Shown here piece by piece: positions 39 through 34,748 of a stretch of 64,000 nucleotides of DNA. Location of the stretch: contig JAGZYM010000005.1 in NCBI GenBank assembly GCA_018377855.1, forward strand, positions 15,567 through 79,566, read 5' to 3'. Made by a program: the position numbers and the translations under genes. The stretch's first letter is position 1, and the number at the start of each line of letters is the position of its first letter. Source of the stretch: Collinsella sp. GTDB lineage: Bacteria > Actinomycetota > Coriobacteriia > Coriobacteriales > Coriobacteriaceae. A model generated the notes under the pieces. That model did not search any database. It saw only the letters and a program-made list of their open reading frames with translations, and had not been told where the DNA came from.

Positions 39-722
39 TTACCCCGCCACACACACCGGGCGCCCGGCCCCTTCTTGGGTGCCCCTCTCCTCCGCATATT
101 CCATAATGCGGCGCGCCGTTTTCCTGCTCACCTTTGAGTCATCGCCGGCCAAGTATGCGTATACGTTTCCTTTATTCAGGCGCAGAGCACGGCAGAGGCC
201 ATAGCGCGTTACACCCGATTCCTCCAATGCTTCCAGCGTTTTCTTTCTCATCAGGGCGTTCACCCTTCTATCGGCCGCCGGCTTTTCCTTCACCGCTCTA
301 TACGCACGCCAAACGTTGGCATAACGATTTGGGAGCTCACTTTTGGCGCATAGAGACGCCATGCTACCCGCTTGACCGTACAAGGATAAAACGTCTCGGT
401 AATCCCGTTCCATCCACGAGCCCTCGGATAAACCCAGAACGTATTCGGCTTTTCCTTGCGCCAAAGCGAGCAAAAACAGAGGCTCCGCCACGCGCGGCGC
501 ATCCGTCGTCGCCTGCTCAACCAATTTTCTAAAACTCAGCGACCGCTGTCCGGATAGCTCTCGGCAATAGCCTTTTAAGAATCCCTCAAAGGTCAGATTC
601 AACCGAGCACCTCCTTTTTGTATTGCCTGTATGCACAGACCATCTCTTGATAACTCCGCTCCGAAGGCGACGACGCCAGCGCCTCTCCCTCGTCGAATAT
701 AAGCCGTTCGAGCAACCCCCAA
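39..722 (-). CDS. hypothetical protein with C-terminal XRE-like HTH segment; annotated start at 722 overlaps the upstream gene by 124 nt so the true start is probably further downstream (non-ATG or internal)
   Basis: ORF track 227 aa; C-terminal ...GLCRALRLNKGNVYAYLAGDDSKVSRKTARRIMEY resembles a helix-turn-helix; local GC lower than the genome background. Confidence 0.35.
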   Translation of the reverse strand: MGVARTAYIRRGRGAGVVAFGAELSRDGLCIQAIQKGGARLNLTFEGFLKGYCRELSGQRSLSFRKLVEQATTDAPRVAEPLFLLALAQGKAEYVLGLSEGSWMERDYRDVLSLYGQAGSMASLCAKSELPNRYANVWRAYRAVKEKPAADRRVNALMRKKTLEALEESGVTRYGLCRALRLNKGNVYAYLAGDDSKVSRKTARRIMEYAEERGTQEGAGRPVCVAG

Positions 723-1129
723 TCAAGTCGGTCGACGAATGCCTGACTATGAAGATCGATGATGTCGTTCGGACGACAGGCATAGAGCTTCATTACCGCC
801 AGGTCCTCCAAGGATGGCGTAAAGTACCTGATAAAACGCGCCCCAATATCCAAGGGAATCAAACGATCTTCGTAATTGAACGGCATCTGATTACAATATG
901 CCACCGCCATACCATTCACCTCGGGGTATCGAGCTATGATCTCGCGGAGGCACCTATCTGCCTCAAACACATCAATGTCATGTGTAACCGAACGATTCGT
1001 CACATCGTTTAGCATGAAGGCGCTTCCTCCCACCAATACAACGTTCGGCCTGTCGTCTCTTGGACCTATTTCCAGCTCCGCCTCTTCGTCAATGCCCAAA
1101 AGAGTCTGTTCTAAATCCTGCTTATACAT
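599..1129 (-). CDS. putative minimal nucleotidyltransferase-fold protein
   Basis: 176 aa; VVLVGGSAFML...SVTHDIDVF fits the hG[GS]x(9-13)Dh[DE]h nucleotidyltransferase signature. Confidence 0.4.
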   Translation of the reverse strand: MYKQDLEQTLLGIDEEAELEIGPRDDRPNVVLVGGSAFMLNDVTNRSVTHDIDVFEADRCLREIIARYPEVNGMAVAYCNQMPFNYEDRLIPLDIGARFIRYFTPSLEDLAVMKLYACRPNDIIDLHSQAFVDRLDWGLLERLIFDEGEALASSPSERSYQEMVCAYRQYKKEVLG

Positions 1130-1932: not shown

Positions 1933-2104
1933 CCCCACACAAAAAGTGCCGCCCCAAAGGGGCGGCACACAAACTTATTATCAGCTTTTCTGTAACGAGC
2001 ATGCGACGACTCAACGCCGGGGCGCAGGGCGGGGAAACCTTTGCCTCGCGCGACCCTGCGAAGCCGTGAGCGAGAGGGGAAGGTTTCCCCGCCCTGCGCC
2101 CCGT
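1933..2104. repeat. structured repeat element copy 1: intrinsic-terminator-like hairpin (1946-1968, GTGCCGCCCC-AAAG-GGGCGGCAC, U-tract on minus strand) plus about 85-nt long hairpin with conserved loop
   Basis: Second copy at 2832-3005; outer 19-bp stems differ completely in sequence yet stay perfectly complementary; loop core GCGACCCTGCGAAGCCGTGAGCGAG is identical in both. Confidence 0.6.
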
Positions 2105-2120
2105 GGTCGGTGAGAACAGA

Positions 2121-2762
2121 CTACATGCCCGCGAGACCGCGGGCGGCGGTGGCGCACATAAATGCCAAGACGAGAATCACGAGCGACCCGGCGATGTCTG
2201 CCAGCACGCCCATTACGCGGCGCTCAAACAGCCAACTCTCAAAGTGCGGGGCGACGTTGCGCCAAACACGCCACAGCAAGATGCCCATACCGATGACGCC
2301 CGGGATATTGAGCAGTAGGATCTCGGAGCACAAAAGACCGATCAGGTTGCCGGCAACAAAACCAGCATCGCCCTCGCAGTATTTGCGGTAGACCATATAC
2401 AGCATGTACGCCACAAACGGCTGCAAGCACGCAGAAATAAACGTAACCACCATCGAGGGCTCCTGCGAAAAGACCTCGGTGAGCTTATCCACGCTCGTGG
2501 CATCCTTAGAGGCCAGGAACAGGCCAATGACCACCACAGGCACCACGCCCAAGATGACCTCGACCATCGTAAACAGCTTGGCGGTCAAGTCCTCACTAGC
2601 CGAATTCAAATGGGGCGCCCACTCAGGATGAGCATGCGCACCGACCTTCTTGCCCTTCTCAGCACGATTGGCCTTTTCACCCTCGGCAACCCGACGACCA
2701 GGATCCTTGCGAGTTCCCGCCGCAGCAACCCGAGCCCGAGACTTCTTACCCATAACCAACAC
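2121..2762 (-). CDS. hypothetical polytopic membrane protein (Lys/Arg-rich N-terminus, about 5 TM segments)
   Basis: ORF track 213 aa; multiple hydrophobic stretches; start uncertain. Confidence 0.45.
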   Translation of the reverse strand: MLVMGKKSRARVAAAGTRKDPGRRVAEGEKANRAEKGKKVGAHAHPEWAPHLNSASEDLTAKLFTMVEVILGVVPVVVIGLFLASKDATSVDKLTEVFSQEPSMVVTFISACLQPFVAYMLYMVYRKYCEGDAGFVAGNLIGLLCSEILLLNIPGVIGMGILLWRVWRNVAPHFESWLFERRVMGVLADIAGSLVILVLAFMCATAARGLAGM

Positions 2763-2831
2763 CTCACAAGAGGAAACGAATAGCCAACGCTACCCAGTGT
2801 ACCCTCTAAGCAACGTCACCGCCCCAACCGG

Positions 2832-3005
2832 CCCCCACAAAAACGTGCCGCCCCATAAGGGGCGGCACACAAACTTTTTTATCAGCTTTTCTGTAGCGAG
2901 CACGCGACGACCCAAAGCGGGCCGGGAGGGCCGGACTACCTTCCCTCAACGCGACCCTGCGAAGCCGTGAGCGAGGAGGGAAGGTAGTCCGGCCCTCCCG
3001 GCCCA
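2832..3005. repeat. structured repeat element copy 2 (terminator-like hairpin 2845-2868 plus long covarying hairpin 2918-3004)
   Basis: Same architecture as 1933-2104; lies immediately 3' of the rubrerythrin stop (3026) on the minus strand. Confidence 0.6.
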
Positions 3006-3025
3006 GCTCACGCTAGCGCCAAGCG

Positions 3026-3565
3026 CTAGTAGTTCACCACCTGCTCCTCAAAGTACGCCTTCGGGTGGTTACACACCGGGCACACCTCAGGCGCCTCGGC
3101 ACCAACGTGCAGGTGCCCGCAGTTCAGGCACTTCCACACCTTTACGCCCTCGCGCTCAAACACCTCGCCCGACTCGATGCGCTCGACGAGTTTGCTGTAG
3201 CGCTCCTCGTGGGCCTTCTCGACGGCGGCGACACCACGGAACTTTGCGGCAATCTCGGCAAAGCCCTCCTCCTCGGCGGTCTTGGCAAACTCGTCGTACA
3301 TCGTGGTCCACTCGTAGTTCTCGCCCGCAGCGGCGTCACGCAGGTTGTCCAGAGTGCCCGGAACGGCGCCGTCGTGCAGATACTTAAACCACAGCTTGGC
3401 GTGCTCGGACTCGTTGCCCGCCGTCTCGGCAAAAATATTCGAGATCTGAACGTAGCCGTCCTTTTTGGCCTTGGATGCATAGTAGCGATACTTGGTGTGT
3501 GCCTGGGACTCACCGGCAAAAGCGGTCTCGAGGTTCTTCTTGGTTTGGGAATTCTCAAAATCCAT
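3026..3565 (-). CDS. rbr: rubrerythrin (ferritin-like diiron domain plus C-terminal rubredoxin-like CxxC...CxxC)
   Basis: [26 protein letters not shown]... ; C-terminal KCLNCGH...CPVCNHPK; ATG at 3565 preceded by AAGGGAAG RBS (ORF track extends to TTG at 3583). Confidence 0.9.
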
Positions 3566-3679
3566 AGGTGTACTTCCCTTCAACGCATGCCGCCCGTAGG
3601 CTTCGAGCGGCCTCGTCTTTAGGATGCCCTCATGCCGAAAATCTAAACCTTACAATCCTGTTCTTCAGATTTGCACAGG

Positions 3680-5451: not shown

Positions 5452-5529
<78 letters not shown>

Positions 5530-5648
5530 AGGCAGTCGTTCGCGTTTGTTTCCGCTCGCGTGCGCTGCGGGGATTAGTATACACAGAAGTCTGTCCGGCG
5601 CGCAACAACTTTTTTGAAAAAATTTTTCGGGGTCATCCGGGAGGGTCT

Positions 5649-5794
5649 CCGGGGCCGGCTGGCGCGGGTTAAGTTTGCTGCTCTACAGTCCTGCGCAAGA
5701 CGGAAAGCACATTAAGTGCTTTCCTTTGCGTGCGGAACTCGCGACAAACTTAACCCGCGCCAGCCGGCCCCGGAGACCCTCCCTGCCGTCACTT
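5649..5794. repeat. perfect 39-bp inverted repeat (arms 5649-5687 and 5756-5794) enclosing a 68-nt spacer with an inner hairpin (5712-5734)
   Basis: GGGAGGGTCTCCGGGGCCGGCTGGCGCGGGTTAAGTTTG ... exact reverse complement; located between tRNA-Asp and the metallophosphoesterase stop. Confidence 0.7.
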
Positions 5795-5941
5795 TGTTCG
5801 AGCCGTTGTTGTTGCTCGCCGCTTCGCGGCTCGGCGGCCCCGTTCTCCGCGGCGGGGTTGGTCTGATGGATCTTGTTGAAGCTCGGCCATTGGCTCAAAT
5901 GGAAACGGGGGACGCATCTGCATCCCCCGTTTTTGTTGTGA

Positions 5942-6409
5942 TTACTCTAGGTCAATAAACTTAGTGCTTAGGATCTTGCCGTCTTTTACTAGCATTCTGG
6001 CCATGGTGGGGCCTCGGGTGCCTCTGGGGTAGCTGGCGCTGCCCGGGTTGAGGACTAAGCAACGGCCCACTTGGACTTCTTTGGTTACGTGGGTGTGGCC
6101 GTTGATGGCTACGTCTACGGATCCCACCGGAAGGTCTTCGCGGTAGTGGGCTACGGCGAATTTAAGGCCTTCGTAGGTAAAGAGCGCAAGACGGTCTACA
6201 TCGGGGCCGTAGTCGCGGTAGTAATCGTTGTTACCCAGTACGGCCCGCACGGGGGCGATGGTGCATAGGTGCTCGTAGTCCATCTCTGACGTGAGGTCGC
6301 CGGCATGGATAATCAGATCCGCGCCCTCAAGCTCATCCAAGAGCGCAGGCGATAAATAGCCGTGGGTGTCCGAGATGATGTCGATACGCTTGGCGCTTGC
6401 ACTGTTCAT
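5942..6409 (-). CDS. metallophosphoesterase (YfcE/MJ0936-family phosphodiesterase)
   Basis: DIISDTHGY...IHAGDL...GNND...NGHTHV... calcineurin-like motifs. Confidence 0.85.
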   Translation of the reverse strand: MNSASAKRIDIISDTHGYLSPALLDELEGADLIIHAGDLTSEMDYEHLCTIAPVRAVLGNNDYYRDYGPDVDRLALFTYEGLKFAVAHYREDLPVGSVDVAINGHTHVTKEVQVGRCLVLNPGSASYPRGTRGPTMARMLVKDGKILSTKFIDLE

Positions 6410-18884: not shown

Positions 18885-18995
18885 TCATTGGGGACAGACT
18901 TAAATGAGTGGTCGTTGGGGACAGCCTTTAAGGACTGTCCCAAGCTGCCGGCAGGAAAGGAACGTCCCCAAGTGCCGGGTTCCCAATGACTAGGT
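18883..18995. repeat. 113-bp imperfect palindromic MITE-like element with 13-bp terminal inverted repeats (CTAGTCATTGGGG...CCCAATGACTAG) and multiple TTGGGGAC/GTCCCCAA motifs
   Basis: Starts at the peptidase stop codon; shares a roughly 45-nt core (CCGGCAG-GAAAGGAACGTCCC-AA-TGCCGG) with 27525-27580 and 34262-34318. Confidence 0.6.
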
Positions 18996-23212: not shown

Positions 23213-23270
23213 CCATTTGAATCTGCAATCCAGCCCCGTCCACGCATCAATGCATTTCCCAAGGTGCTGC

Positions 23271-23380
23271 GCGTTTCGCGGCAAAGCCGCGAAAAAGCAA
23301 AGGGATAAGAAGCCGCAACAACCCCGCCCCCCATCCATCCCCAAAGCAACGCGCCTTTCGCGGCAAAGCCGCGAAACAGC
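23271..23380. repeat. two copies of the palindromic hairpin TTTCGCGGC-AAA-GCCGCGAAA (23271-23298 and 23351-23380) in a convergent intergenic region
   Basis: Direct repeat of a 21-nt perfect palindrome about 80 bp apart. Confidence 0.5.
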
Positions 23381-23447
23381 GACCGGGACAAAAGGCCCCA
23401 CCAACCACGTCCTTCATTCAGCCACACAATCCAAGGACGTAGTCGTA

Positions 23448-23572
23448 GCAGGATCTGAGGGCTGACCTTCGCGGACACTCCGCAGGACGAAAGAACCCCC
23501 GCCGCACGTAGTGCGCAGCGGGGGTTCTTTCATGTCCGAGGACATCCGCGAAGGTCAGCCCTCAGATCCTGC
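23448..23572. repeat. nested palindrome: outer 25-bp inverted repeat (AGGATCTGAGGGCTGACCTTCGCGG...) around inner hairpin GAAAGAACCCCCGC...GCGGGGGTTCTTTC, immediately 3' of PFOR
   Basis: Read directly; probable transcription terminator or processing structure for nifJ. Confidence 0.5.
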
Positions 23573-23582
23573 GGTGGGAGAC

Positions 23583-27122
<3,540 letters not shown>

Positions 27123-27468
27123 ATACCCCTCTCCTCTCATATAGGTATACAGGCCCCGGCGATCGCCGGGATGTTGGCGTGATGGGATTTACGCTGTTGC
27201 TTCCAATCATCTGGCAGGCGGACTCAGCAGCAGGTACATGGCGTGGAGAGAAGGCATGCCGAGGCGAGGAGGGCTGCACGCGCTCCACAAGCCCAGCTAC
27301 CCGTCTTGCACATGACCGAGCGCCGCAAAGGCCGCATGCCGGATGCTCCCGGGCACGCCCCGGCGATGGGAAGCGCCCGCAACGGAAATCCGCATGCGGG
27401 TTTATTGTACCCCGCCGTTAAGTGTAATTTCGACAAATATAGGCGGGCGGTAAAGGTTTACCTCGGGT

Positions 27469-27995
27469 GACCGCCAAAGGCCAGAATGGTCCCTCCATCC
27501 CCGGACGACTGGCTCTGACGCGCCAAGGAGTGTCCCCAAGTACCGGCAGGAAAGGAACGTCCCTAACTGCCGGCTAGAGGGCGCCGAGCAGGATGGCGTA
27601 GGTGGTGGATTCGCCGAGTTTGAGCTCGTCGCCGGGGTTGAGCTGGGCGGAGCGGCCGGGCTCTACTTGAATACACACACTCGTGGCCCCGTTTACCACC
27701 ACGGTGCCGTTAGTGGACGACAGGTCCTCGACAAACCATGCGCCAGACTCGTCGCACCAGATATGGGCATGGCGGGCCGAGACGTCGTCGGTGATGCCGC
27801 CCTCCCCCGTTGCCAGCGCGCCGATCTCAACGCCTTCCTCACTCGGCTGAATCCAGCGCGGGACGCTCACCACGTAGCCGTTTTGCACGCACAGCAGTCC
27901 CAGCGGATGCGCCGGCGCGACCTCGTGCTCGCCCGCGACCGAAGATGTGCTCAGCGAGCGCGGCGTCGACGTGTCGCCGCCACGGGTCGCATGAG
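27469..27995. repeat. left copy of a roughly 530-bp direct repeat (about 85% identical to 34205-34748) covering the FHA-domain coding region and its 3' flank
   Basis: Nucleotide alignment by eye; includes the shared 45-nt motif. Confidence 0.75.
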
Positions 27996-28047
27996 CGCGG
28001 CGGCTCGCCCGACTTGGAACTAAGGCGGGCGTGAGAGCAAACGGCAT
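27574..28047 (-). CDS. FHA-domain protein, truncated paralogue (FHA domain only) of the 34310-35248 gene
   Basis: C-terminal 135 aa nearly identical to the paralogue (VSARHAHIWCD...VEDLSSTNGTVVNG); unique 18-aa N-terminus. Confidence 0.6.
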   Translation of the reverse strand: MPFALTPALVPSRASRRAHATRGGDTSTPRSLSTSSVAGEHEVAPAHPLGLLCVQNGYVVSVPRWIQPSEEGVEIGALATGEGGITDDVSARHAHIWCDESGAWFVEDLSSTNGTVVVNGATSVCIQVEPGRSAQLNPGDELKLGESTTYAILLGAL

Positions 28048-33967: not shown

Positions 33968-34204
33968 ATCGAGAGCCTTCCGTGCGCTCTGCGGTGTAAG
34001 GCGCCAATCTCAGCAAATCTGTCCCACAATACTGCGCTGAAGAACAAGACGGAACCCCTGAGCCAAACTCCCCTATACCTTATTAAGGCTAAGACAGGCA
34101 AGTTCACGCACCCGGCATATTCCAGAATAACATCCTATTGTTTTAGATGCTCTACAAGCATGAACAGCCGCGAATCGGAAAGATCTTCTAGTTTCGCCCC
34201 GACT

Positions 34205-34748
34205 GACCGCCAAGGGCCAAAATGGCCCCTCCATCCCCGGGCGACTGGCTCTGGCGCGCCGAGGAGTGTCCCCAAGTGCCGGCAGAAAAGGAACGTCCCT
34301 AACTGCCGGCTAGAGGGCACCGAAGAGAATGGCGTAGGTAGTGGATTCGCCGAGCTTGAGCTCGTCGCCGGGATTGAGTTGGGCGGAACGGCCGGGCTCG
34401 ACCTGAATGCAGACGCGCGTGGCCCCGTTTACCACCACGGTTCCGTTGGTGGACGACAAGTCCTCGACGTGCCAGATATTTTGAGCATCGCACCAGATAT
34501 GGGCATGGCGGGCCGAGACATCGTCGCCGACGTCGGTAATATCGCCCTCACCAGTGGCCAGCGCGCCAATCTCAACACCCTGCTCACTCGGCTGAATCCA
34601 GCGCGGGGCGCTCACGACAAAACTGTTTTGTACGCGCAGCAAGCCCAAGGGGTGCGCCGGGGCGGGTTCGCGTTCGCCCGCGGTCATCGACATGCCAAGC
34701 GAACGCGGCGTGGATGTGCCTCCGCCACAGGTCGCGTGCGCGTAGTCG
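34205..34748. repeat. right copy of the roughly 530-bp direct repeat (see 27469-27995)
   Basis: Nucleotide alignment by eye. Confidence 0.75.

Follow-up and report, generated by a model that had tools for sequence, protein, structure and literature searches.

The window analysed here is a 64,000-nucleotide stretch of Collinsella sp. DNA (contig JAGZYM010000005.1), in which two copies of a module of approximately 175 nt were found on the minus strand, at the ends of the rubrerythrin gene and of an adjacent gene for a predicted membrane protein. Each copy consists of a hairpin with 34-nt arms, a spacer of approximately 48 nt and an intrinsic terminator. Judging from sequence, we tentatively read the module as a Collinsella-specific hairpin transcribed in the 3′ untranslated region (3′ UTR), which may serve the formation or stability of mRNA 3′ ends ahead of the terminator. 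The hairpin is kept in a combined sample of roughly 200 contigs from gut metagenomes and assemblies of Collinsella. The module is a locus-specific feature restricted to the genus, and its tip and terminator are under purifying constraint. The orientation of the module, its position after the stop codon, the strand specificity of the terminator, the constrained asymmetric tip and an apical helix that pairs on the sense strand together favour a transcribed 3′-UTR element.

The two copies, A and B, are 82% identical by pairwise alignment. Both begin 16-22 nt past a stop codon on the strand of the gene, with the terminator on that same strand, and in both hairpins 18 nt separate the arms. A core 25-mer and a 31-mer motif of the spacer each have two exact occurrences in the 64 kb, with none expected in shuffled sequences. 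The minus strand folds with -112.2 kcal/mol in copy A (z = -7.9) and -131.5 kcal/mol in copy B (z = -10.3). At both copies a G+C-rich stem-loop with a T-rich tail lies on the minus strand 3′ of the genes, as in intrinsic terminators, whose activity is here predicted; the site reads GTGCCGCCCC-loop-GGGGCGGCAC with a T-run behind it, and the plus strand has no such site. Past the terminator of each copy, approximately 80-250 nt separate it from the next gene in that orientation. The features, including matches to a covariance model named R1, are the following.

1933-2112, minus strand: whole module, copy A, 3′ of the 213-aa membrane-protein gene, delimited by alignment with copy B; R1 match at 2009-2112 with 114.6 bits.
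2018-2103, minus strand: long hairpin of copy A, arms 2018-2051 and 2070-2103 (91% complementary), outer variable stem 2019-2037/2084-2102.
2049-2074, minus strand: conserved asymmetric centre of copy A, CTCGCTCACGGCTTCGCAGGGTCGCG on the minus strand; exact 25-mer at 2050-2074.
1969-2017, minus strand: spacer of copy A, including GTCGTCGCATGCTCGTTACAGAAAAGCTGAT, with a diversity near neutral.
1936-1968, minus strand: predicted intrinsic terminator of copy A, GTGCCGCCCC-TTT-GGGGCGGCAC plus T-run; stem from 1968 to 1946 with 10 pairs (9 G-C), tail TTTTTGTGTG.
2833-3013, minus strand: whole module, copy B, 3′ of rubrerythrin; R1 match at 2910-3013 with 113.2 bits.
2919-3004, minus strand: long hairpin of copy B, arms 2919-2952 and 2971-3004 (94% complementary).
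2950-2975, minus strand: conserved centre of copy B, the same 26-mer as in copy A; exact 25-mer at 2951-2975.
2871-2918, minus strand: spacer of copy B, by alignment with copy A, with the shared 31-mer.
2833-2870, minus strand: predicted intrinsic terminator of copy B; stem from 2870 to 2843 with 12 pairs, tail TTTTGTGGGG, T-run.
2121-2762, minus strand: gene for the 213-aa predicted membrane protein, without a family match, flanked by copies A and B as direct repeats.
3026-3583, minus strand: rubrerythrin gene (PF02915, PF21349), its stop codon approximately 20 nt upstream of copy B.

An initial annotation of this DNA had placed two hairpin elements on the minus strand 3′ of the gene at 2121-2762 and of the rubrerythrin gene, and these coordinates were borne out. 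We likewise recovered the large hairpin followed by a classic intrinsic terminator that it described (minus-strand sites 1968 to 1946 and 2870 to 2843, with T-runs), and the conserved core common to both hairpins is the exact 25-mer. The 19-bp outer stems had been called entirely different in the two copies, with every difference compensated. Only the second half of that description holds: in ungapped alignment 11 of the 19 positions are identical and intermediate stem classes in other genomes link both forms, whereas all eight differences are compensated on the opposite arm.

In a comparison of the region and of the whole window with Rfam 15, at the gathering threshold and at a permissive E-value, the sole match at threshold was a tRNA, and the matches to the hairpin below threshold were generic miRNA-precursor models (39.5 bits versus a threshold of 168). 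The element matches no family. A literature search on Collinsella hairpins, inverted repeats or invertons returned nothing relevant to the element. The only published structured-RNA candidate named for the genus is the Collinsella-1 RNA motif (RF01700; Weinberg et al. 2010, PMC2864571). Like the module, it has few copies and is known from gut metagenomes; however, its sequence is unrelated, and RF01700 matches no part of the window, also when the E-value is set permissively. The module is a modest but previously undescribed element of the broad palindromic kind associated with gene ends and terminators, and its signature of concerted arm evolution is unusually clear.

The distribution was obtained from two samples. 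The first was a one-genome-per-species scan with a 20-mer from the centre, which matched at least 119 stretches. Among the matches listed, 118 of 119 were DNA of Collinsella or Coriobacteriaceae; no two of these came from one assembly, and each had a single locus of one or two copies (counted per assembly, with no complete genome among the assemblies); the flank was always the end of the rubrerythrin gene or that of the membrane-protein gene. L086 is Collinsella DNA inside a bin labelled as another family. The match in L087 (Alphaproteobacteria) was rejected as a chance 20-mer identity within unrelated sequence, and those in L080, L032 and L064 as fold-back assembly artefacts at contig ends. 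The second sample, metagenome contigs gathered by means of the membrane protein and hence unbiased regarding the element, came solely from Collinsella relatives at 90% identity or above. Model R1 found no further site in the 64-kb window or in any collected locus, and the more distant membrane-protein homologues (33-51% identical) have different gene neighbourhoods and no R1 match, so the element could not be followed beyond the genus.

We then compared diversity between regions, using only copies whose partner copy had triggered the match, which removes the ascertainment bias. Nucleotide diversity (pi) at 4-fold synonymous sites was 0.12 in the rubrerythrin gene and 0.17 in the membrane-protein gene. 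The 26-nt tip showed 0.05-0.06, the terminator 0.06-0.07 and the spacer 0.15-0.28, which is about neutral; the outer arms reached 0.29-0.36, at or above the neutral proxy, yet they stay reverse complements of each other. In 112 copies sampled regardless of their tip, the variation of the tip is concentrated at two positions, the others being nearly invariant, and these two turn a U.G pair into C-G or U-A within the apical helix GGCUU/GGGUC. This helix pairs on the gene-sense strand only, and the changes between wobble and Watson-Crick pairs are specific to that strand. Known motifs were sought in the tip by inspection. An iron-responsive-element-like loop was discarded, as the tip has CAGGGU rather than CAGUGN, a weak upper stem and a different predicted fold, and none of the K-turn, GNRA and UNCG motifs fits.

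On the reading that we tentatively prefer, the mRNA of the upstream gene would carry the module as its 3′ UTR, and this RNA would form a perfect stem of 30-36 bp capped by the conserved asymmetric 26-nt tip, with the canonical intrinsic terminator approximately 48 nt downstream of the long stem. The stem would most likely serve the formation or stability of the mRNA 3′ end, possibly as an RNase III-type processing site, as a barrier to 3′ exonucleases, or as a first terminator devoid of a U-tract ('I-shaped') in a tandem arrangement, and the tip would be the part recognized in a sequence-specific manner. Intrinsic terminators include tandem arrangements and the 'I-shaped' hairpins without a U-tract described in Actinobacteria, and in the module a long G+C-rich hairpin without a U-tract precedes the canonical terminator. 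Like intrinsic terminators, the module follows stop codons directly, in the orientation of the gene, and has a G+C-rich hairpin with a 3′ T-run; unlike them, it has an upstream hairpin of 30-36 perfect base pairs, beyond the need of any terminator, and a sequence-conserved asymmetric 26-nt tip, and it is duplicated at two adjacent gene ends.

A comparable arrangement is present elsewhere in the window. At 23448-23572, 11 nt past the stop codon of the pyruvate:ferredoxin oxidoreductase (PFOR) gene (23583-27140, minus strand), an inner hairpin resembling a terminator is enclosed by a perfect inverted repeat of 28 bp, and two small terminator hairpins in tandem come after this repeat (region 23258-23406). 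This palindrome shares the layout of the module, namely stop codon, long perfect hairpin, spacer and terminators, in unrelated sequence. PFOR and rubrerythrin are typically among the most highly expressed genes in anaerobes. Given this parallel and such high expression, processing or protection of the mRNA 3′ end, or a hairpin-only first terminator, appears to be the most economical role.

Pairing of the hairpin was followed across genomes. The 55 distinct hairpins of the first sample have folds of -62 to -99 kcal/mol, fall into at least six stem classes and reach up to 36 uninterrupted pairs; the predicted stems, of 29-36 bp, would exceed the approximately 20 bp of uninterrupted double-stranded RNA expected of a substrate for RNase III. 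In the MAFFT alignment of this sample, 96.5% of the cells are paired and 20 of the 34 pairs changed on both sides, and the unbiased second sample gave nearly the same picture (96.3%; 21 of 34), whereas controls with the partner slid by 1-3 columns had at most 54% paired. The hairpin is conserved, and its base pairs are kept through abundant two-sided changes. At least 25 bp across the tip are retained in 155 of the 159 gene-anchored site instances of the genome collection, among the matches listed; the other four are two chimeras, with arms of different classes, and two alleles without a hairpin (L028 and L047). One of the stem classes, E (L103 5240-5460; also L043, L022, L019 and L091), is composite. 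It comprises another class's left arm, which in some cases carries half of the conserved centre as far as CGCAGGG, then a 25-nt linker (CAACTGCYGG...), and after this a complete hairpin whose arms are new, together with a spacer that differs and the usual terminator; a search for the linker or spacer as a reverse-complement copy of nearby sequence found no source.

The covariation is real, yet alone it is no proof of selection on RNA structure, because template switching can yield all the features of the arms without selection at the RNA level. Two reports (PMC8794818; PMC8604942) document that template switching between the arms of inverted repeats during replication homogenises the arms, produces multi-base 'compensation' and inverts spacers. 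The module resembles the repeats treated there in its homogenised arms, transversion-type compensation, symmetric indels and possible inversion of the spacer; those studies concern the mutational mechanism, and the module adds a constrained centre and a constrained terminator beside the arms. Swaps of GC for CG and of AT for TA are frequent, even between near-identical relatives (L005; L052/L109), and one stem class differs from another by a 2-nt TA insertion, symmetric in both arms. The initial annotation had argued from the compensatory changes to selection on structure, an argument that is not supported, given arms that outpace synonymous sites, no excess of G.U pairs, transversion swaps and a symmetric indel. 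In our view the arms are probably kept exact reverse complements mainly through template switching or conversion at the DNA level, with selection removing broken hairpins.

Two more long palindromes were noticed. The first, at 5639-5783 of the window, is a perfect inverted repeat of 39 bp around a centre of 67 nt; it separates the gene of a YfcE-like phosphodiesterase from the promoter for a tRNA (gene at 5455-5529). Its orthologues have a constant centre and arms that, judged by eye, vary between genomes but match each other; some contigs have chimeric arms, and in L101 the centre is inverted at a contig end. The second, an extended palindrome comparable to the module, is in another organism, where L202 763-975 has inverted-repeat arms of 69 nt, 80% complementary and internally duplicated, after a membrane-protein homologue of 51% identity; these arms enclose a perfect 14-bp terminator hairpin between convergent genes.

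A first alternative is that the module is purely an extended palindrome of DNA, in which fold-back or template-switch events create and homogenise the arms. The stem would then be a self-maintaining mutational by-product without RNA function, and the tip and terminator would be conserved only as the original terminator region. We regard this explanation as rather unlikely, although several observations fit it. The arms are exact in the Watson-Crick sense, diverge at or above the neutral level, and show transversion swaps and symmetric indels without an excess of G.U pairs; the centre is flipped in L141, L128 and L180, as expected from template switching between arms according to PMC8604942; alleles without the hairpin exist; and the palindromes at 5639-5783, 23448-23572 and L202 763-975 behave similarly. 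On the other hand, the tip, which is not palindromic, exceeds synonymous sites in conservation two- to threefold, and the changes at its variable positions leave the sense-strand helix intact. A single orientation of the centre is found in 109 of 112 unbiased copies and in 157 of 157 gene-anchored copies bearing a tip. Long palindromes are normally prone to deletion, whereas this hairpin is retained in the 155 of 159 instances across a genus with a synonymous pi of 0.12-0.17.

Some of the data weigh against a 3′-UTR element. The constraint on the tip is only 2-3 fold relative to synonymous sites. Single mismatches of the main stem, mostly singletons, comprise approximately 20 G.U versus 28 A.C/C.A on the sense strand, which does not look like the wobble tolerance that a helix selected as RNA should show. 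In L028 and L047 (site A, 2 of 78 genomes) the terminator is kept without the hairpin, which appears dispensable at least in these metagenome-assembled genomes (MAGs). Finally, the palindrome at 5639-5783 evolves with the same concerted arms, and its position, with a terminator-like hairpin on one side and the promoter of a tRNA on the other, makes a 3′-UTR role less obvious.

The variant structures also bear on whether the module is mobile. The initial annotation had offered a REP/MITE-like repeat (repetitive extragenic palindrome or miniature inverted-repeat transposable element) as one option, but each assembly has a single rubrerythrin locus, with no target duplications and no precise empty site; one locus per assembly, always in the context of rubrerythrin, is not what a dispersed repeat of this type would give. 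Its two other options, a structured 3′-UTR element and a small RNA, are plausible. REP sequences, bacterial interspersed mosaic elements (BIME), enterobacterial repetitive intergenic consensus (ERIC) sequences and the Correia elements of Neisseria are intergenic palindromic repeats; as parts of transcribed 3′ UTRs they influence how stable the mRNA is. The module is like them in being an imperfect-to-perfect palindrome at gene ends with predicted folding in mRNA and plausible RNase III or exonuclease-barrier sites; however, they occur in tens to hundreds of dispersed copies, some with terminal inverted repeats and target duplications, whereas the module has one or two copies and neither feature.

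A mobile or recombination element in the wider sense (a repeat of MITE, REP or palindrome-associated transposable element type, a cassette boundary like integron attC, or a small invertible switch) seems very improbable to us. Pointing to it are the copies flanking a gene as direct repeats, contigs that lack the membrane-protein gene between the copies (L089, L117, L118 and L101), chimeric hairpins (L036, L090, L101 and L001) and the three flipped centres, as well as an IS200-like transposase gene adjoining copy B in L098. In that Collinsella MAG, the transposase gene (166 aa, 5720-6220) and its flanks (5600-6370) are inserted directly past the terminator of copy B; the ends of the IS200-like copy have no similarity to the hairpin core, which speaks against a connection. 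Nor was there any match among the viral contigs searched with the core, or more than the one locus in each of the 118 assemblies among the matches listed. Target-site duplications are absent, the conserved part is the centre and not the termini, and the alleles without a hairpin result from imprecise deletion between AAGCTG repeats that also removed flank and spacer sequence. The junctions of gene loss differ, lying within the core in L101 and within the spacer or terminator in L089, L117 and L118; this is what homologous recombination of the two direct repeats, or their collapse in assembly, could give, and it does not fit a fixed crossover site or site-specific recombination. In integron attC sites the boxes at the base (R″/L″ and L′/R′) are conserved, the hairpin is imperfect and has extrahelical bases, and the centre varies; the module is the opposite, with a variable base, a perfect stem without extrahelical bases and a conserved centre. 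As an inverton it would have a centre of just 18-28 nt with no promoter-like site inside, and a scan of seven neighbouring proteins found no integrase or recombinase.

The flipped, chimeric and gene-loss variants, moreover, all come from MAG or metagenome assemblies, in which the repeat often breaks the assembly, and the flips may be artefacts of mixed-strain assembly. Of the three flipped centres among the 112 metagenome copies, those of L141 and L128 are internal to the contig and that of L180 is at a contig end; none of the 157 tip-bearing copies in the genome collection is flipped. Among the 80 contigs with the membrane-protein gene (L120-L199), 28 begin within approximately 270 nt upstream of the gene, inside copy B, and several others end inside copy A, such that the repeat with its hairpin is a frequent assembly breakpoint.

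Two further readings keep the module in RNA but give it another function. One is a small RNA derived from the 3′ UTR, excised from the mRNA (for example by RNase III cutting in the stem) and acting in trans through the tip or the spacer. Its size of approximately 175 nt and its layout of stem-loop, A/U-rich single strand and terminator would be typical of bacterial small RNAs, the tip is conserved, and the lack of a promoter common to the copies on their upstream side would agree with release by processing. However, the spacer, the likeliest seed region, is about neutral (pi 0.15-0.28), and no complementary target for the core was found in the window on either strand with up to 3 mismatches. 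A search for a promoter in the spacer or hairpin found no promoter-like site; a GATAAT-like motif of the spacer was rejected by eye because its key last position varies between the copies. The near-neutral spacer and the lack of a promoter-like site in the module weaken the idea of a trans-acting RNA, which we consider quite unlikely. Short open reading frames through the element, examined on both strands, were set aside as inconsistent between the copies and running through the terminator.

The other is a cis-regulatory leader or attenuator, in which alternative pairing with the terminator would let copy B control the gene of the membrane protein and copy A the gene that follows. The terminators do lie approximately 80-250 nt upstream of the next same-strand gene, but no conserved anti-terminator was found: the best complement to the 5′ half of the terminator has 5-7 nt, is in the variable left arm and is absent from 50 of 157 instances. 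The terminator stays constant against varying arms, none of the riboswitch families of Rfam matches, and in some genomes, such as L060 and L043, a different sequence lies beyond copy A. The missing anti-terminator, the lack of a promoter-like site and the near-neutral spacer speak against such a device, and we give it hardly any credence.

One may also ask whether the extended hairpins at Collinsella gene ends (the module, the PFOR palindrome and that adjacent to the tRNA gene) form an undescribed class, in which the arms would be rewritten by template switching and the tip would stay as the constant recognition site for a protein or RNA, flipping occasionally as an on/off variation of the 3′-UTR element at the DNA level. 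We put this forward as a speculation and think it decidedly doubtful.

Other observations in the window are recorded for completeness. A segment of approximately 550 nt is duplicated 6.7 kb apart, at 27454-27997 and 34190-34742, with 78-90% identity, and a motif of 49 nt (AAGGAxTGTCCC...GCCGG) occurs three times, with 18930-18978 among its sites. A DUF6036 nucleotidyltransferase gene (599-1129, minus strand) overlaps an open reading frame of 227 aa without a family match (39-722), an arrangement that resembles an accessory or toxin-antitoxin-like pair.

Regardless of its function, the module provides a clean natural case in which arms of an inverted repeat that evolve in concert at the DNA level explain 'perfect covariation' better than compensatory selection acting step by step, and it calls for caution in the discovery of RNAs through covariation in high-GC genomes. 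It also accounts for the frequency with which contigs break, and may be wrongly joined, at this locus in MAGs of Collinsella. If the reading as a transcribed 3′-UTR element is true, this would be a new genus-specific element controlling the mRNA of rubrerythrin, an abundant protein of oxidative stress, in a common actinobacterium of the human gut, and its recognition tip would be compact and testable.

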